This document shows, piece by piece, positions 6,001 through 12,000 of a stretch of DNA of 32,423 bases. The DNA is from an uncultured Verrucomicrobiae bacterium (lineage in GTDB: Bacteria; Verrucomicrobiota; Verrucomicrobiia; Chthoniobacterales; JAFAMB01): assembly GCA_963813025.1 (NCBI GenBank), contig CAWEXO010000007.1, forward strand, positions 1-32,423. Direction: 5' to 3'. Each line of letters opens with the position of its first letter. The first letter of the stretch is position 1. Position numbers: made by a program.

Positions 6001-9000
6001 ACGTCGAGAAGGGCGGTTTTCGGCCACTCAGGATCTCGCCCGAAGCTTAGCGTACTTTATTTCCCTTTTCGTCAAAGGACCCCTTACAGACCGAGCACGG
6101 GTGCTCGCCGTCGAAGGTCTGAACAAGGCCAGCCTTTAGCCCGGCCCGCTGGCTGTACTGGACAATCATGCCAAGCCAGGCGCTCGTTTGCAGCAACGCC
6201 CAGTGACCTCCCAAAATTTGCAGGAGGGCCAGAGCGCAAAAAAAGATGCCAAAACGCGGCCGCATCGGTTCCCGTGTGGCATGTTGACCGGTTCAGCGCC
6301 AAAGGCAACTGCCCAAATGCCCGCCGCAAGTCAACCGCCCCGAGACTGCGGCCCAAGCTTTAGATTTTAGACCTTTGTGCTGATCGTGACGGGAATTTGC
6401 CACTGCTAACGCAATCTCGGCGTCCCCTAGTGCGATGTGAGACAAAGTGTCGCAAAAACGGCGCTTTTGCGACCCGTTCCCGCGACATTCACACATCCCG
6501 CTTGATATATCGGTAAATACCGATACATGGAAGGTAATGCGAGACTTTACTTCCCTTGGGCAAGCCATCGTAGATCCGACACGCGTCCGCATTATTGCTG
6601 CTCTACGGCGCTGGGAACTGTGCGTGTGTGAGTTGGTAGACGCATTGGAGATCAGCCAATCGACTCTCTCCGGTCATCTTCAGGTCCTTCGGCAGACTGG
6701 CCTGGTTGTTACCAGGAAGGAAGGCCGCTGGATTTACTATTCTCTTTCTGATCGGAAAACTGCACTGATCGAGGCGATATTCTTTCAGGCTAAACCCGAT
6801 AGTGATACCGATCCGCGCCTCCGCCGTGACACGCGGCGAATCGAGCGCCGCTTGGCCATTCGTGAGAACGGGCATATATTGTCGGCTTCACGGAGTTGGA
6901 AGAACATCAGGCTGCTTTGAAATAATCGATGTCTCAATCTCCAGAAACTATCGAAAGTTTGGCGCTCCGAGCCGCGCCAGCACTCCATGAGATCGCTCGT
7001 GGCATGGCGCTCAGAAAATGCCGCAAGTGCGGCTGCATGAAAGATGCTCTCAATCAGGCAGGGCACGCTTTTGAGACTTCCGAAGACCCGAAAATCCGCT
7101 CTTTTCTGCCGCGCATTTCCGATTATCAGGCGAGGATGGAGACGCTGGCCTACGACTGTATTGGCTGTAAAAAATGCTGGGGTGCGGACGCTACCATTGA
7201 GCTCGCCAACCATTTTGATGAGGTGGAGCTCGATACGTGCAGCGATGAGCACTCCCCCGGCGGCATAAAATCGGCTGTTACCTCTTCGAATAGGTACGCG
7301 CGCTCATCAGCGATAGCTGCTTGGCCGCCGCATCCGGGTGACTATGTTTTGGGCAACCCTGAGGGGAGCGTGGCCATTTGCACGCTTTCTAATCGCGATC
7401 TGCCTGCCCGTCTTATTGCTGTCGGAGAACCGGCTGTGGCAATTGCGGGTCGCTGTGACACCGAAAATATTGGTATTGAAAAAGTCGTATTAAATCTGCT
7501 GGCCAATCCACGGATTCGCTGGTTGGTAATCTGCGGCACAGAAGCCAAGGGCCACCGTGCCGGAGACGCTTTTCTCCAACTGAAAGAGCGAGGCGTTGAT
7601 GCTGATATGCGGGTCCTGGAGTCAGCTTCCTGGCGGCCGATTCTTAAAAACTTGACGCTTTTAGACGTGGCACAGTTTCGCCAACAAATTGAGGAGGTTA
7701 ACGTCATTGGCGTTATTGATATAAAGGAAATTCTCGCCGCCGTTCGCGACTGCTCTCACAGCCCGGTGCAGGCATTTCCTGCTGTTCCCGACGAGGCCGC
7801 CGGGCGCAAAGACATACTTGCAGCGGTCGAACACATCCCTGCCAAGGCTCCAAAGCAACTAAGACTTGATCGCGCCGGATTCTTCATTGTTCTGCCGCAG
7901 CCGCAGAAAGGTCTGATTGTCTGTGAACATTACGAAAACAATGGTCGCTTGGCTCATGTCATCGAAGGACGGCAAGCGGCGCTGATCGCTTCTACAGTCG
8001 TGGAGCGCGGATTTGTGACACAACTGGACCACGCCGCGTACCTGGGCCGCGAGCTGGCCAAGGCCGAGGCGGCGCTTTCGTATGGCATCACTTACGAGCA
8101 GGATGCCGCCCTCGGCCGGCTCGCAGCAGCGGAGCCGCACAAAACGAAAAAATCCGACTGCCAGTGCAGCTAGATCGTGGCTTTCGGCCCGGTGATGAAA
8201 CGCCTCCGAAACCAAGCAGGTAACGAATATGACCACAAAAACCAAATGGCCAGGCGCACTTTTGGCCGTAGCAATCACTCTAGTCGCAGGGGGTATCAGG
8301 GCGCAGGATCAGCAGCGGCAACAGCGAACGTCGGAGGGCGCTGTGAGCGTTAATGATCTTGCCGCTAAACCCGGGGAGCACCTGGGCCAAGTGCAGCTGA
8401 TCGGTGTTGTGGCCGCTGTCTCACAAGGACAAGGCTTTGTGCTCGTAGACAAGCGCGAGTATGCCGATTGTGGCCTGACCTGCTTAGCTGAACCAGGTAC
8501 AAAGAAAATTCCGGTACGCTGGAGCGGCGACGCTCCAAAGCTTGAACAAACAGTCCGTGTCGCGGGCATCTTGGGCCAGAGCGCGCAGGGTCTAAGTTTT
8601 GTTGCACAGCAGATAGGTATCCAGTGAATGTGACGAGGCTAATTACCGCGGTCGTCTTTATCGCAATCTTTGTCGCGCACGCTCTTTACGTGAGCGCGTG
8701 TGCCGCCTCAGCCCCTTCCGGCTGGACGGACTTCGGTATTAGCGCCCATGTCGTCGGGCCGCTGGGCCTGGGGGCTTACTGGCGCGGACAGGATTATTTC
8801 ATCGGTTTTTCCTATGCGTTGGCTGCGGCGTTCGCGACATGGGCGCTCAGTCGCAGCATCCTCTTTCGTCAAGGAAGGGCCGTTACGGCGGGAGCCGCTG
8901 CAGGCGGGGTGACGCTTTTGGGAGCGCTCATGGCCGGCGGCTGTTTTCTAATCGGCTGTTGTGGATCACCGATGCTAGCTGTCTACCTGAGCCTGTTCGG

Positions 9001-12000
9001 CGCCAACGCGTTGGGCTTAGGCAAACCCTTAATGGCCTTGGTGACTCTGATTTCCGTCAGCTGTGGTTACTGGTGCCTTTCGCGCCGTCTCGCGCGAGGA
9101 AGCACTTGCATGGACGATTGCTGTTCTGGGTCAGACACCCCTGCTGGGATCGAGGGCATTAACAGATTCAAAGCTAAGATAAGAAGCCAGAAAGAATGAT
9201 CTCATACCCGGCGGCGATCATCGCAAGGAACGATTAGACCCCGCCAAACAGTAACCAATGCGCCATCCGATTCCGCGCTGATGAAGTAAGTACGGCGCTC
9301 CCCTGCTCAGTCTTGGCTAAATCGGCCCAGTGAAAACATTCGTTTCACCAGGGGCAAAGTAGCGCTGAACGTGGCAGTCAGGCAGCAACGGCATCTTGTC
9401 CGATGGCCAATCTCTGGCTCATGTCGAGCCGAAAAGTCCCGTAGGGAGTCACGTGAGCGTAGATGAGCGGCGTCAGTGCACGTAGATCATCTGGCAGCAT
9501 GCGTTGCGTCCAATCGGGCTCGGTCAAGACACGCTGGATCATCAGGGTGTTGATGTAGACAAGGCAGATCTGCAGGAGGTGAAGTGCCAGCATAGTGAGC
9601 TCCTGGTTTTCCAGGTCGTTGGTAGCGATCTCACCGCCTTTGCCGTACAGGATGAAGCTGTTGGCCCCGTTCCAGGTCTCGATGACGTTGAGGCCTTCTT
9701 GGATTTCGCGCCGCAGCGCTTCGGAGTGTAGGTACCGACACAGAAAGATCGTTTTGATCGCCTTGCCGAACTCTGCAAAAGCTAGGTATGTAGGATGTTT
9801 TAGGTTGTTGCGGGCGAAGCGTTTCAAAATCGCCTCCGTCTCCGCTGTGCCCAAGCGTAAGGCGGTGGCATACTTGATCATCTGATCGTATTGCTGCTGG
9901 ATTAGTTACCAATCGATGGGGCGGGTCAACACGACTTGGAGGTTGGGATACGCTTCAGGCCGGCCGGCCTCGGCCCGATACAGCTTCTGGGCATGGATAG
10001 CTTTGAGCCTTGGCAAAAGCTGAAAGCCAAGCAGGCGGCAGAAGGCGAAAGCCACCTCGCTTTGTCCGTGCGAATCGACGTAGTTTTTCTCGACCTCCAT
10101 CTCTGTATCATGGCGTAGCAAGCCTTCGATCATGGCCGCAACTTCGGACAAGGAACAGGTTTTCAACTGCGAGTAGATGCAGACCGCGTGCTTCTCGACA
10201 TGCCAGTAAATCATGATGCCTTGACCGCCGTAGCGCACGTGTCACTCCGTCATGAGGATCCCAGGAGCCGAACTTTTTGGAGTCCGAAGCGCAGGCCGTC
10301 GTCGCCTCGCCCCAGATATGAGGCAGGCGGATCCGAAACACCCCATTGACAACCTTGGCAATAGCTTCGCGGAACGGCTCTTTGCGGATGAAACGTCGGC
10401 GCACATAGACCAAATCGGGGTAGCTTTCGGCCCCCGCGCCGCTACTTACGCGCTTCAGTCCGGTGTTCGTGCCCAGCCCGTACAAGCAGAGTAAGAGGCG
10501 CTTCTGCAACGTCGCCGGATCCAGAGACTCGCGTCCGGTTGCGCTCTTGAATGCCTTGCTGAAGTCGGTACGTAAATCGGTCTCTTTGAGCATGTCGAGG
10601 AGACTGGTCATCGGCCAGCGCTTGAGGATCTCGCTTTTAAGATCCGATAGATTGACCGGTTCAGGCTGCGCGTTCAGGGGCGAGAGCGCGATCCAGCCGT
10701 GACGCTTTTGCAGGATCTTGACGTGTGGATTCTTTGGCAGACCGCGATCCAGCAGGGTGAGCGCTTCGTTCATTTCCCGTTGCACACCGCCAAGGAAGCT
10801 CTCGACGTCTTGTGGAAGGTTGAGCGCGGCATAGTATTGCTCACGCTGGACTTCGAAATCTGTCGGTAAATCCTCGTCCGGGTTGCGATAGCGGTTGGCG
10901 CCGACCACCCAGATCTCTTTACATCGCAGGCGCTCGCGCAAGACTTGCAACACGCAGAGCTCGTATTTGAGCCGGTCCACGCGCAAATGCCCTTGCTTAT
11001 CCGGCATGAGAATGAGCTCGCGCCACCCGCTGCTCACGACTCCCTCCAGGGGGACCTCTTCTGGGTCATAAAACCTCGGGGCGTGCTCTACAGTTTGTTT
11101 AATGACGTCGAGGGCACGGATCACGGGTTGGTGCATCTGGTTGTTGGAACGAAACTCCAGCGCCTGCAACAAGGCCGGGATCGCCCGTCTGTAGTGATGG
11201 CTGTAGGAGGCGCGCATCACCGTGGAGACGTGCTGGCGATAGGCCGGGCCAGTGCTCTTAAGCTCCTTCACCAAGTCGGCGAGGGTCTGCTCATCGACCA
11301 CGGGAAAAAGCACTTCGCGGATGATCCCATCGGGGTTAGCGAGTGCCGTCTCGGCCAGCCGACACAATAAAGTGTTTTTACTGGTCACCCGTTTCAACGT
11401 GCCAATCAGTTCGCGTTCGACGCGCCGCTCGGCCGTCGCGCCGATGCGGTGGATGATCTGAATCAGCGACTCGATCAAGTCGTCCGTGATCTCCTGTGCC
11501 CGCAGCCAGCAGTAAACGGCGATCAGACTGTAGCGCAATGATGCGGGATGGCGGCGGATCTCGTAAGCGTTCTCCACGGCGGCGCGTTGCCGATACCGCT
11601 GCAACAGTCGGGGAGCAACGTGACGCAAGAGGTCCTGTGCAAGGTTAAGCTGTCGGAGCTGTTGCAGCTTGCTAATCTCCTCGAGTGCGTTATCGAGGCC
11701 CGCCCGCCTCGGATCCGTTTTTAGTTGCTGAAGGGGCGAGTGCTCCGATTCCGCTGTTTCGCCACCTTCTGTCTCTGCACTGAGCAAGATTTCCAGCCGT
11801 CCTAATGCCTTGCGGCAGGACGTGCTCAGATAACCAGACGGCCAACTCCTCGGCATCTTGCACCGTCGGCTCGCGAAAGCCGAGGAAGGCACGGATCTGT
11901 GCGCGGTGGTATTTTACGGTGCGCCCTTCCCAGTCATAGCGTGAGAACTCCTCTGCCGGAACGCCTACCTGCCCGGCGATGTAGGCAACGGCAGTCGTCG

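Follow-up and report, generated by a model that had tools for sequence, protein, structure and literature searches.

According to passages of PMC4915002, the standard chemistry of MtrA, the corrinoid subunit of the methanogen Mtr complex, is methyl transfer onto a thiol, coenzyme M, the demethylation of MtrA is coupled to Na+ translocation, and both His84 and Glu54 of MtrA have roles in the corrinoid site. The window analysed here, the whole 32,423-nucleotide stretch of contig CAWEXO010000007.1 from an uncultured Verrucomicrobiae bacterium, encodes an MtrA-type corrinoid protein, MtrAL, in an operon that an earlier note had likened to mer, with MtrAL in the place of MerA and a Tn3 transposon as the carrier. 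Our analysis upholds the genes, domains, invariant residues and frame breaks of that account, while it rejects the carriage on Tn3 and a CxC tail common to the whole family. We found no published description of the module in the literature. Our preferred reading, which we hold tentatively, is that a corrinoid enzyme carries out methyl transfer on a soft metal(loid) and is served by a thiolate relay; if so, the module would point to an undescribed way of toxic-metal handling in soil bacteria.

Organization of the locus

Four co-directional ORFs (arsR, MtrAL, sec132 and tm191) form the operon that had been described (Table 1), and the ORFs of sec132 and tm191 overlap by 4 nt. The combination of ArsR control, a cytoplasmic MtrA-type protein, a secreted protein with a Cys pair and a membrane protein bearing Cys inside the membrane is conserved, as had been proposed.

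Table 1. Features of the module and the neighbouring elements, in window positions.
Feature	Position	Strand	Extent or basis
Tn3-family element 1	41-6083		terminal inverted repeats and end sequences; Pfam domains
Shared block	6489-9324	+	promoter to 125 nt beyond tm191; blastn
Palindrome, putative ArsR operator	6508-6525		8-2-8, perfect
arsR, ArsR/SmtB metalloregulator	6537-6920 (ORF start 6447/6537)	+	HTH_5, NF033788
MtrAL, 414 aa, three domains	6929-8173	+	Pfam, phmmer, alignments, AF2 model
sec132, 132 aa, secreted OB fold	8229-8627	+	AF2 model, alignments
tm191, 191 aa, polytopic membrane protein	8624-9199	+	alignments, hydropathy, charge distribution
Tn3-family element 2	9324-12483		inverted repeats; Pfam

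Rather than being carried on a Tn3 transposon, the operon sits in 3.2 kb between two separate elements and beyond the inverted repeats of each, and is therefore not Tn3 cargo. Element 1 is bounded by 40-nt terminal inverted repeats (40-79 and 6045-6084, 93% complementary) and contains a resolvase gene at 2370-3005 on the minus strand (Pfam Resolvase, 1.2e-42), a transposase gene at 3105-6050 on the plus strand (Pfam DDE_Tnp_Tn3 and DUF4158) and a DDE_3 insertion at 198-1314. Element 2 has 45-nt inverted repeats (9324-9368 and 12439-12483, 89%) flanked by TAAAT on each side (the left flank has an additional base), and its only gene is a transposase on the minus strand, in four pieces. The transposase of element 1 is likewise fragmented, in keeping with the frame breaks noted earlier for both genes.

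The block that holds the operon is shared, at ~89-90% nucleotide identity by blastn, with the Verrucomicrobiae loci L002 and L011, and in slightly shorter form with L003 and L004; on the right it reaches exactly to the opening base of the element 2 inverted repeat. Flanking genes differ between loci that share the module at ~90% nucleotide identity (blastn), and relaxase and integrase genes and small MOBV plasmids are found near module loci. Within the phylum, only 2 of 301 sampled genomes carry tm191. Our preferred reading, tentative as a whole, takes the module to be horizontally mobile.

The predicted corrinoid protein

Both Pfam assignments of MtrAL were reproduced exactly (MtrA 1.8e-39, residues 128-283; DUF4346 5.6e-21, residues 313-392), as was its phmmer match to PDB entry 5l8x (1.8e-30), in which GTEAKGHRAGD aligns with GSEVQGHITGQ. 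Fold searches with a new AF2 model (pLDDT 87.9) agree on an MtrA-like fold (5laa_B, Foldseek E 8.2e-15, TMt 0.90; VIA Z 25.4). The six cysteines of the helical Cys6 domain (residues ~12-100; C31, C34, C36, C77, C80 and C83) are invariant together with G208 and H209 in alignments of 17 and of 53 sequences, and E179 is likewise invariant in both; H209 and E179, present in 53/53 diverse relatives, are the equivalents of MtrA His84 and Glu54. True MtrA differs in its meander motif, given in passages of PMC4915002 as GAIPF(Y/F)xEN, where MtrAL reads SWRPILKN. A hydropathy scan found no hydrophobic segment in MtrAL. Sequence and model point to a cytoplasmic protein with a domain predicted to bind a corrinoid, and other B12-binding proteins are encoded in the same genome, two of which exceed the Pfam cut-off.

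The C-terminal CxC is present here (CQC) and in 10 of 17 sequences, and is specific to a clade rather than a general trait of the family. More broadly, a Cys pair occurs in the tail of 19 of the 53 sequences, and cysteines occur in flexible linkers or the tail of 48. A Planococcus homologue carries a metallothionein-like run of ACGCxxxxC repeats. Against our preferred reading, the Cys6 domain might hold an Fe-S cluster or a structural Zn instead of the substrate.

The secreted and membrane partners

Neither sec132 nor tm191 matches a Pfam family, even at E 0.1, as had been reported. The AF2 model of sec132 (pLDDT 82.7; residues 40-132 above 93) has structural matches among OB folds (up to Z 10.7; Foldseek 6.2e-05) instead of the MerP/HMA fold, and the proposed likeness to MerP does not hold. 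Across 32 relatives its CxxxC pair is well conserved, in that C85 never varies and C81 is kept in at least 90%, and the model places C81-x3-C85 on the helix linking strands 3 and 4. In tm191, alignments of 14 and of 37 relatives show no variation in GCCGSP, which belongs to a larger set of invariant residues (H19, S63-Y64, C107-F-L-x-G-C112-C113-G-S-P116 and K134), and the C-terminal tail holds a Cys cluster. For tm191, homology to MerT finds no support (hhalign probability 11%; Pfam MerT at E<=1 in 0/14 members). At a hydropathy threshold of 1.5 the protein shows three stretches, with residues 58-78, read as TM2, scoring under it; since fusions P0122 and P0165 place both termini in the cytoplasm, tm191 probably has four TM helices.

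A metagenome search with tm191 as the sole query returned 271 relatives, and 80 loci were retained. MtrAL accompanies tm191 in 27 of the 30 loci having at least 1800 bp of upstream DNA, and fragments of it are found in 23 loci with shorter upstream DNA; sec132 was found in 59 of 63 loci. Of 24 loci, 23 have arsR immediately upstream. Among metagenomic gene calls, single polypeptides join tm191 to MtrAL (P0122, P0146, P0147 and P0155), MtrAL to tm191 (P0165), MtrAL through a TM helix to a sec-like domain (P0123, P0163 and P0170) and ArsR to MtrAL (P0128). These natural fusions of MtrAL with tm191 or a secreted-type domain make it very likely that MtrAL, sec132 and tm191 form one trans-membrane assembly. 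Contigs from three RNA libraries, 88-97% alike, span arsR to tm191 and bridge the junctions, a hint of expression with DNA carry-over possible. Counting against the preferred reading, Planococcus plasmids, Paraburkholderia sp. PGU19 and the archaeal locus L018 have MtrAL but neither tm191 nor sec132, and the reverse holds for L073, where sec132 and tm191 stand without MtrAL.

With Cys pairs within the membrane and on either side of it, the assembly might instead be a DsbD/CcdA/ScsB-like relay that passes electrons across the envelope by thiol-disulfide exchange, in which the corrinoid and Cys6 domain (possibly Fe-S) of MtrAL would pass reducing equivalents via the tm191 cysteines to sec132, and sec132 would keep envelope cysteines reduced or reduce periplasmic metal species under metal stress. 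L018 fits such a relay in having, after MtrAL and at the place expected for tm191, a cytochrome-b5-like and a DsbD_TM protein, and in P0161 a C-terminal extension past a TM helix weakly matches Thioredoxin_9 (E 5.3e-4; 20.3 bits, where the cut-off is 25). We nevertheless consider electron transfer unlikely. No member matches DsbD_TM and tm191 lacks its signature, the OB fold of sec132 with its helix-borne CxxxC differs from the thioredoxin fold, and the Planococcus Cys repeats and the ATPase and CDF partners favour metal binding over electron transfer. We know, moreover, of no corrinoid role in relays of this kind.

The fusions of MtrAL to a membrane protein, the exporters among the operon partners and the precedent of Na+ translocation upon MtrA demethylation (passages of PMC4915002) would also suit an export device driven by methyl transfer, after the model of the Mtr pump of methanogens. 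As the MtrAL corrinoid is methylated and demethylated, with a His-on/His-off switch, tm191 would be driven through conformational changes that move a soft metal ion from the cytoplasm to the periplasmic OB protein, alongside the P1B/CDF exporters. We give this idea, which is based wholly on analogy, little credence: tm191 is unrelated to MtrC/D/E (0 Pfam families), the locus encodes neither methyl donor nor acceptor, and Planococcus and Paraburkholderia have MtrAL without any membrane partner.

Regulation and metal context

The arsR product matches HTH_5 (Pfam, 5.3e-17), passes the NF033788 metalloregulator model (94.2 bits, cut-off 55) and carries ELCVCE within helix alpha-3. Alignments with L001-L004 confirm its frame break: 1 nt is missing at 6874/6875, which shifts the final ~15 codons and loses the conserved Cys of the RENGRC(V/L)xGF found in relatives. 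The palindrome TATCGGTA-AA-TACCGATA lies 11 nt 5' of the arsR ATG (1 match in the window, 0 in 100 shuffles) and 28 of 34 related loci have it, with at most 4 substitutions, 5' of arsR; as predicted from sequence, it is likely the ArsR operator. Across module loci, the regulators are ArsR-type or CsoR-fold, with Cys-rich sensor sites.

In keeping with the metal-handling context proposed earlier, the module recurs among metal-resistance genes, but these are mixed and multi-metal, and the focus on mercury is not borne out. The commonest operon partners are Zn/Cd/Hg/Pb-type exporters. P1B ATPases of this type lie in or beside the operon at L013, L014, L017, L018, L090 and on the Planococcus plasmid, and a CDF gene lies directly 3' of tm191 at L007, L065, L083, L091 and L097. 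Further neighbours are CadD, MerT/MerR/MerB, MerA, multicopper oxidases, RND/Cus-like pumps, ArsM-like methyltransferases (L096 and L060) and ACR3 (L066). Given the Zn/Cd/Pb-type exporters in the operon, a mer-style importer fits poorly. That MtrAL stands in for MerA had been deduced rather than observed; in L018, a true MerA (TIGR02053, 561.7 bits, cut-off 454) lies in the same cluster, so MtrAL is not simply its substitute. What survives of the earlier interpretation is a metal-associated corrinoid module, newly backed by the fusions, whereas Tn3 carriage, a MerP-like fold, MerT homology and a simple substitution for MerA are not supported.

As the standard acceptor of MtrA is a thiol, coenzyme M (passages of PMC4915002), MtrAL might use its corrinoid to methylate a thiol or sulfide in organic or inorganic sulfur or C1 metabolism, with Cys6 as a thiol-activating Zn site as in MetH/MtaA-type enzymes. 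ArsR would then sense stress from persulfides or thiols, and the nearby metal genes would be no more than island neighbours. Consistent with this, the model of BigR, a sulfite/persulfide-type sensor, gives arsR 57.2 bits, short of its cut-off of 155. Among relatives of the MtrA-DUF4346 pair, moreover, P0184 has an ICMT-like membrane methyltransferase as fusion partner, P0214 a thymidylate-synthase-like domain and P0224 a dCTP-deaminase-like domain, indicating that this unit functions in other methyl or folate contexts. Such a role is improbable, however, as P1B ATPase and CDF genes are inside the same operon and not just near it, arsR passes the metalloregulator model, metallothionein-like Cys-rich inserts exist, and the periplasmic and in-membrane Cys sites would be left without a role.

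The predicted corrinoid-binding domain could also serve cobalt or corrinoid trafficking, storage or salvage, unrelated to toxic metals. A TonB-dependent receptor gene lies 5' of the module in two Bacteroidota loci (L015 and L016), and CobS was not found in the window's genome (80% complete), so the cell may depend on imported corrinoids. This explanation strikes us as very improbable: a search of the window and 9 related loci found no cobalamin riboswitch, the adjoining exporters belong to the Zn/Cd/Hg/Pb type, the ArsR-type or CsoR-fold regulators have Cys sensor sites, and the ligand sets of the module are rich in thiolates, an unusual environment for Co(II).

A possible mechanism

In the thiolate relay that we tentatively favour, ArsR, with its C-V-C in helix alpha-3 and, in intact relatives, a C-terminal Cys, would occupy the TATCGGTA-N2-TACCGATA palindrome until released by metal(loid) binding, as its family suggests. 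The fusions support an association in which sec132, tm191 and MtrAL would form one complex spanning the inner membrane: the OB-fold protein in the periplasm with its CxxxC pair on a helix, the probably 4-TM protein with an in-membrane His and C-x4-CC and a cytoplasmic Cys tail, and MtrAL in the cytoplasm. Thiolate ligand exchange would carry the ion between the periplasm and MtrAL, whose Cys6 domain and flexible Cys motifs would keep it beside a His-on cobalamin. A Co(I)/CH3-Co(III) cycle may then add a methyl group to the ion or remove one, and the product would exit as a volatile species or via the exporters that are often co-encoded. The methylation, demethylation or reduction proposed earlier is likewise a putative chemistry.

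Two further points weigh against this mechanism. An MtrH/MeTr-type pterin methyltransferase was seen in none of the loci scanned, in line with the earlier remark that no methyl donor is evident, and Zn, Cd and Pb are not known to undergo biological methylation. MtrAL is found in two cultured strains, and its function is thus open to testing.

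Results

A conserved module whose parts are joined in nature

Our searches show that a widespread, mobile, ArsR-linked module exists and that its parts are joined in nature. Querying species-representative genomes with MtrAL, the 414-aa protein that combines a six-cysteine helical domain (Cys6) with an MtrA-type corrinoid domain and DUF4346, returned 19 loci (L001-L019) from Verrucomicrobiae, Ca. Acidoferrum, Geobacteraceae, Anaerolineaceae, Bacteroidetes, Saganbacteria, Actinomycetota and an archaeon. One of these, L001, corresponds to the window itself (99.5% identity). The order arsR-MtrAL-sec132-tm191, in which sec132 is a secreted CxxxC protein and tm191 a membrane protein with a GCCGSP motif, was found again in L002-L012, and MtrAL and tm191 are adjacent in varying order in L013, L015-L017 and L019. 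As an independent test, metagenome contigs were searched with tm191 alone, which gave 271 relatives, and 80 loci were kept (those with higher L numbers). MtrAL is present in 27 of the 30 tm191 loci with at least 1800 bp upstream, the three exceptions without a full MtrAL being L021 (a C-terminal MtrAL remnant), L073 (sec132 and tm191 alone) and L100 (frame-shifted), and 23 shorter tm191 loci carry MtrAL fragments. Furthermore, sec132 lies upstream of tm191 in 59 of 63 loci, a full MtrAL is directly preceded by arsR in 23 of 24, and the sec132 family also includes the 126-129-aa proteins that adjoin tm191 in loci of Bacteroidota, Saganbacteria and Actinomycetota. Against 1.84 billion representatives (50% clustering), the MtrAL profile matched 2579 proteins at E<=1e-3, 1368 at 1e-10 and 345 at 1e-30, and hundreds of close relatives occur in metagenomes, soil samples included.

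Physical coupling is seen in fusion proteins, all metagenomic gene calls, among the best 150 relatives from the profile search (P numbers). tm191 precedes MtrAL in a single polypeptide in P0122, P0146, P0147 and P0155 and follows it in P0165; MtrAL is joined through a transmembrane (TM) helix to a sec-like domain in P0123, P0163 and P0170, and ArsR is joined to MtrAL in P0128. These natural fusions argue that MtrAL, sec132 and tm191 would form one complex, in which both termini of tm191 would be cytoplasmic and the OB domain of sec132 would lie on the opposite side of the membrane. A complex prediction for MtrAL and tm191 returned a score of 0.00, which is no answer and counts neither for nor against binding.

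Operon organization and regulation

An ORF scan of the window found the four co-directional ORFs where they had been placed before. The window arsR has a winged-helix HTH_5 domain (61.9 bits vs a cut-off of 22, Pfam), scores above the curated cut-off of the ArsR/SmtB metalloregulator model NF033788 (94.2 vs 55 bits, NCBIfam) and carries an ELCVCE thiolate site in helix alpha-3, which its relatives have in common together with a C-terminal ...RENGRC(V/L)xGF. The frame break reported for this gene comes from one nucleotide that L001-L004 have and the window lacks at 6874/6875; its loss shifts the last ~15 codons and removes the conserved C-terminal Cys. An assembly error is a likely cause, because L001 and the window differ by 24 gaps in 13 kb and one transposase break is read through in L001. 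The palindrome upstream of arsR, with the candidate ArsR target sequence TATCGGTAAATACCGATA, has one match in the window vs none in 100 shuffles, and it recurs at the same place with <=4 substitutions in 28 of 34 related loci. The Bacteroidota loci have instead a regulator of CsoR fold in which the usual sensor residues are missing and the C-terminus reads C-x3-C-x2-C. RNA-library contigs from three soil/peat libraries, 88-97% alike, map to arsR, MtrAL, sec132 and the first part of tm191 and span the operon's gene junctions, most of tm191 being among the parts without cover, which count neither for nor against expression; the contigs hint at expression of relatives, DNA carry-over being possible too.

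Features of the window by position (nt; minus strand marked)
Feature	Position	Content	Remarks
Sugar-binding-protein gene 3' ends	1-41; 12578-12681; 13788-13918	periplasmic sugar-binding protein, ...KDNID(K/Q)FNF	78-83% alike
Tn3-family element 1	41-6083	resolvase, broken transposase, DDE_3 insertion	inverted repeats
Insertion inside element 1	198-1314	two overlapping ORFs	22-nt inverted repeats (198-219, 1293-1314)
72-aa ORF	6047-6265 (-)	hydrophobic N-terminus, CxxC motif	
arsR	6447-6920 (ORF)	start most likely ATG 6537	GGAAGG ribosome-binding site upstream of ATG
Perfect palindrome	6508-6525	TATCGGTA-AA-TACCGATA	11 nt upstream of arsR ATG
MtrAL	6929-8173	414 aa	
sec132	8229-8627	132 aa	
tm191	8624-9199	191 aa	4-nt overlap with sec132
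Tn3-family element 2	9324-12483	broken transposase only	inverted repeats; TAAAT at both flanks
Intact sugar-binding-protein gene	12773-13891		
Third Tn3 remnant	13732-14385 (-)	transposase C-terminus	inverted-repeat-like 14020-14050
IS3-type pair	14474-15771	HTH_Tnp_1 + rve	
DDE_Tnp_1_4 transposase	17856-19166		

A role of the module in corrinoid trafficking seems to us very improbable. An Rfam scan of the window and nine related loci gave no riboswitch, cobalamin type included, or other RNA except a tRNA in L012. A single MtrAL is encoded in the host genome (4.4 Mb, 80% complete), along with two B12-binding-domain proteins above the Pfam cut-off, and CobS was not found in this genome at this completeness.

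Mobility of the module

The earlier note had placed the operon on a Tn3 transposon between two broken transposase genes. Both transposase genes are indeed broken, whereas the operon lies outside both elements, since the transposase-proximal ends of elements 1 and 2 face it. The two elements are unrelated and have unlike inverted repeats, and element 1 shows no clean 5-bp target duplication (TACTA vs TTACA). The block common to the window, L002 and L011, about 89-90% identical in nucleotides, starts at 6489 and stops exactly where element 2 is inserted, at 9324. A Tn3 transposase was found in none of the 80 metagenome loci and, L001 excepted, in none of the 15 of 19 genome loci scanned with Pfam. 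The module is mobile despite lying outside the Tn3 elements. Its flanks vary from locus to locus, and mobility genes nearby include integrases (L002, L062, L079), a TrwC relaxase (L060) and small MOBV plasmids; of 301 genomes sampled across the phylum, only two, one of them G000, have tm191.

The window is rich in insertion sequences and adjoins sugar-transport genes, the first 19 kb of the contig being a pile-up of such elements beside sugar ABC-transport and oxidoreductase genes. The insertion inside element 1, with DDE_3 and HTH matches in its overlapping ORFs, is a frame-shifted IS630-like transposase. Each of the three sugar-binding-protein 3' ends adjoins a Tn3-family end, and the intact gene is followed by the third Tn3 remnant, which together suggest that insertion or recombination was repeated at one kind of site. 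The 72-aa ORF has no Pfam or NCBIfam match and looks truncated by element 1, because its 3' end enters the inverted repeat of that element.

The putative corrinoid protein MtrAL

On repeat, Pfam gave MtrAL the same figures as before, MtrA at 1.8e-39 (residues 128-283) and DUF4346 at 5.6e-21 (313-392), and its PF04208 score of 135.6 bits vs a cut-off of 25 places it in the MtrA superfamily. MtrAL aligns over its full length (18-413 to 16-385 of 390) with NF002128 (PRK00964.1-6, three-domain 'MtrA') at a score under the cut-off (317.7 vs 568 bits), below which six relatives also stay (332-412 bits), and it is not a TIGR01111 equivalog (125.3 vs a cut-off of 249.15 bits). The likeness to MtrA described previously was recovered by phmmer against PDB, with MtrA chains down to 1.8e-30, GTEAKGHRAGD aligned on GSEVQGHITGQ of MtrA, and CDTENIGIEKVV aligned on CHTENLGIEKVV of MtrA. 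Passages of one paper (PMC4915002) describe MtrA His84 as the lower cobalt ligand, Glu54 as its hydrogen-bond partner and GAIPF(Y/F)xEN as a conserved meander motif, and already record bacterial MtrA homologues of unknown function. The equivalents in MtrAL are H209 and E179, invariant in all 53 relatives at identities down to 28%; by alignment, our data show that the cobalt-ligand residues of MtrA are kept in the module's enzyme.

An AF2 model of MtrAL built on the 53-sequence alignment (pLDDT 87.9) has the same fold as methanogen MtrA and its cytoplasmic homologues (5LAA, 5L8X; 38-40% identity). Against 5laa_B, Foldseek gave E 8.2e-15, TMt 0.90 and an rmsd of 1.4 over 154 columns, and VIA gave Z 25.4, these fold searches effectively covering residues ~135-282, i.e. 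the MtrA domain. Unlike methanogen MtrA, which shares the ligand His and its Glu partner, MtrAL adds Cys6 and DUF4346 and has a diverged meander motif (SWRPILKN). By hydropathy it has no hydrophobic segment and so is without the C-terminal TM helix that anchors Mtr subunit A, and no other mtr genes were found among the ORFs scanned in the 32-kb window. By analogy with Mtr, the module might be a methyl-transfer-driven export device, an idea to which we give a small chance.

The six cysteines C31, C34, C36, C77, C80 and C83, earlier described as invariant, are so in all 53 sequences, and the model locates them in two inter-helix loops. The C-terminal CxC tail survives as a clade-specific trait and not as a family-wide one: it occurs in 10 of 17 aligned sequences and is lacking in six distant ones (L013-L018), five of which carry C-x-C-x2-C, and L014 C-x2-C, in the linker before DUF4346. 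Among the 53 MtrAL sequences, 19 have the tail Cys pair, 11 the linker motif and 48 any Cys in a flexible segment. The MtrAL of a Planococcus kocurii plasmid has a metallothionein-like N-terminal linker with three ACGCxxxxC repeats and more Cys. The Cys6 domain had no usable match among ESM Atlas named clusters, and a word-indexed search for short Cys6-domain proteins gave 94 matches, all apparently fragments of the MtrAL family, so that no separate stand-alone Cys6 family was seen.

The secreted protein sec132 and the membrane protein tm191

As the earlier note stated, sec132 and tm191 match no Pfam family at E 0.1. sec132 carries a signal peptide, and its Cys pair recurs among 32 relatives, C85 being invariant and C81 present in at least 90%. 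Its AF2 model (pLDDT >93 over residues 40-132) shows an OB fold of five strands, and the CxxxC pair sits on the helix that connects strands 3 and 4. OB-fold domains head the 50 listed VIA matches, the best being those of MCM, RPA and AsnRS at Z about 10.5 (top Z 10.7), with periplasmic YgiW at 8.9 and the haem chaperone CcmE at 8.7. Since its best matches are OB domains, sec132 is not MerP-like as had been proposed; MerP has the beta-alpha-beta-beta-alpha-beta HMA fold with GMTCxxC, and none of the 14 sec132 members searched with Pfam gives an HMA hit at E<=1.

The GCCGSP motif of tm191, reported as invariant, is so in 37 relatives, along with H19, S63-Y64, the surrounding C107-F-L-x-G-C112-C113-G-S-P116 and K134. 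Hydropathy and charge are compatible with four helices and a cytoplasmic C-terminal Cys cluster, and tm191 members gave no convincing match to any Pfam family. The proposed likeness to MerT stands as a motif, GCCGSP lying in register with VCCVGP, and fails as a profile match, with an hhalign probability of 11.2% over 59 columns against the MerT of L002 and 0 of 14 tm191 members matching PF02411 MerT at E<=1. At the sequence level, this likeness is a resemblance, homology not being demonstrated. In L073 (1536-5167), sec132 and tm191 homologues occur without MtrAL and converge with a CopA-type (Cu) P1B ATPase with a Cys-rich N-terminus; judged from this locus, the pair may be able to work alone.

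Neighbouring genes and cultured carriers

A scan of 15 independent genome loci found metal genes in 11. P1B ATPases with the Zn/Cd/Hg/Pb type as their best NCBIfam match belong to the module's own operon in L013 and L017 and are encoded close by in L014 and L018; further P1B ATPases occur in the metagenome loci L060 and L090, with a fragment in L038. True mer genes lie beside the module, namely MerA in L018 (561.7 bits vs a cut-off of 454), MerT, MerR and MerB with DUF6428 in L002, and MerT and MerR with CadD in L006; given the MerA of L018, MtrAL does not simply replace MerA, as once suggested. No MerA was seen in the window, and in the host genome at its 80% completeness none of ten TIGR02053 matches reaches the cut-off (best 330.5 vs 454). 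L007 has a CDF transporter, L009 CadD, a multicopper oxidase and an RND pump, and L016 a multicopper oxidase. Among metagenome loci, a CDF gene lies directly 3' of tm191 in L065, L083, L091 and L097, L097 has Cus-like RND genes, and L066 has ACR3 (452.6 bits vs a cut-off of 282.8). ArsM-like methyltransferases, both under the curated cut-off, occur in L096 and L060, and L060 has a weak TPMT-like gene. This mixed neighbourhood names no metal.

No locus scanned contains a pterin-type methyltransferase. That MtrAL is itself a thiol methyltransferase we regard as quite unlikely. A DsbD-like redox relay is slightly less so, though still unlikely in our judgement; in its favour are a DsbD_TM protein in L018 and a weak thioredoxin-like tail on the MtrAL relative P0161.

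Two cultured bacteria carry plasmid MtrAL homologues without tm191 or sec132. The 13.5-kb plasmid of Planococcus kocurii ATCC 43650 has the order arsR - 'cation transporter' - P1B ATPase - MtrAL, the ATPase gene spanning the record's origin, and a divergent MerR-family gene adjoins the MtrAL of Paraburkholderia sp. PGU19. Because these strains carry the gene, its function is directly testable.

An MFS transporter of no named subfamily, with best NCBIfam matches far under cut-off, occurs in seven metagenome loci (L029, L032, L037, L053-L055, L090) and in L007 and L010, either directly 3' of tm191 or divergent from arsR. In L010 and L090 it apparently has a common operator region with the module, of which it may be a fifth component. 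In the archaeal locus (L018:7133-11377), MtrAL is followed by a cytochrome-b5-like protein, the DsbD_TM protein, an unknown protein, a cysteine desulfurase and the true MerA, and then by ArsR and the P1B ATPase, a different partner set for the same enzyme. In the Bacteroidetes locus L015, a stand-alone 120-aa DUF4346 protein (11360-11722) is encoded 4 kb downstream of the module, beside a gene with a SHOCT domain; further SHOCT genes are present where L015 begins and in L013.

Discussion

The reading that we tentatively favour is a thiolate relay that serves a corrinoid methyl-transfer enzyme acting on a soft metal(loid). We infer that thiophilic metal(loid) ions would travel along the Cys sites of the module and would be methylated or demethylated by the MtrAL corrinoid. 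The module resembles the mer operon in its metal-sensing repressor and periplasmic Cys-pair protein, in a membrane protein that has a vicinal CC..P within a helix plus a Cys pair on the cytoplasmic side, in a cytoplasmic enzyme whose flexible ends bear Cys pairs, and in its location on mobile DNA. In contrast to mer, it has no component of demonstrated homology, its regulator is of the ArsR and not the MerR type, its enzyme is a corrinoid protein where MerA is a flavin disulfide reductase, and its frequent operon partners are exporters, which are absent from mer operons. A mer-style picture of import and detoxification is weakened because exporter partners are frequent and MtrAL-only operons exist.

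The corrinoid domain of HgcA is CFeSP-like with a Cys ligand, whereas that of MtrAL adopts the MtrA fold and has His as its ligand; at E<=0.1, Pfam gives MtrAL only MtrA and DUF4346 and no CFeSP-type family, and MtrAL has no TM segment. HgcAB likewise ties a corrinoid protein to a membrane domain, has Cys-rich partner motifs and has an unknown natural function, but our module's membrane partner is encoded separately as an unrelated 4-TM protein, and a ferredoxin partner is missing. A link between hgcAB and ArsR-type regulators is mentioned in a preprint (bioRxiv 10.1101/2022.10.17.512643). With cadCA operons (CadC and a P1B-2 ATPase) the module shares an ArsR/SmtB repressor with a CVC site and, in L013, L017 and the Planococcus plasmid, a Zn/Cd/Hg/Pb-type P1B ATPase in the operon; the window operon has no ATPase, and MtrAL, sec132 and tm191 are absent from cad operons. 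The SAM-dependent methyltransferases of the ArsM and TPMT types, whose like adjoin the module in L096 and L060 (ArsM) and in L060 (TPMT), would have the proposed outcome in common, methylation of a Cys-bound metalloid, yet they belong to another cofactor class and fold and have no sequence relation to MtrAL.

To our knowledge, the only known biological source of methylmercury is corrinoid chemistry, assigned to one gene pair, hgcAB. The family databased as 'MtrA' differs from hgcAB and is wired to Cys-lined partners, metal sensors and exporters. A bolder proposal, which we consider rather doubtful, is that abundant bacteria of soil and sediment (Verrucomicrobiota, Acidobacteriota, Bacteroidota, Geobacteraceae and others) have a mobile, metal-induced, B12-dependent machine that is related to neither hgcAB nor mer. 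At the membrane, it would methylate or demethylate mercury or a different soft metal(loid), or it would power metal export by methyl transfer as Mtr pumps sodium. If the (de)methylation is true, organometal species would have a second biological route of formation or removal, so far unrecognised, and if MtrAL transforms a metal(loid), gene-based surveys of organometals and metal resistance miss a player. If it does otherwise, the use of B12 by MtrAL in many bacteria and at least one non-methanogenic archaeon still calls for an explanation, and sec132 and tm191 are two protein families without a Pfam model. Among the papers that our literature searches listed, titles and abstracts gave no description of the module, and no literature on DUF4346, alone or with MtrA, was found; non-methanogen MtrA-like proteins of unclear activity are mentioned in a passage of PMC11291895.

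Two-domain relatives that combine MtrA with DUF4346 and lack Cys6 (P0214, P0224, P0184 and P0256) are fused to other domains, which are thymidylate-synthase-like, dCTP-deaminase-like, an ICMT/PEMT-like membrane methyltransferase or PCP_red. The pair of MtrA and DUF4346 has evidently been put to further use in settings that involve nucleotides, folate or methyl groups.
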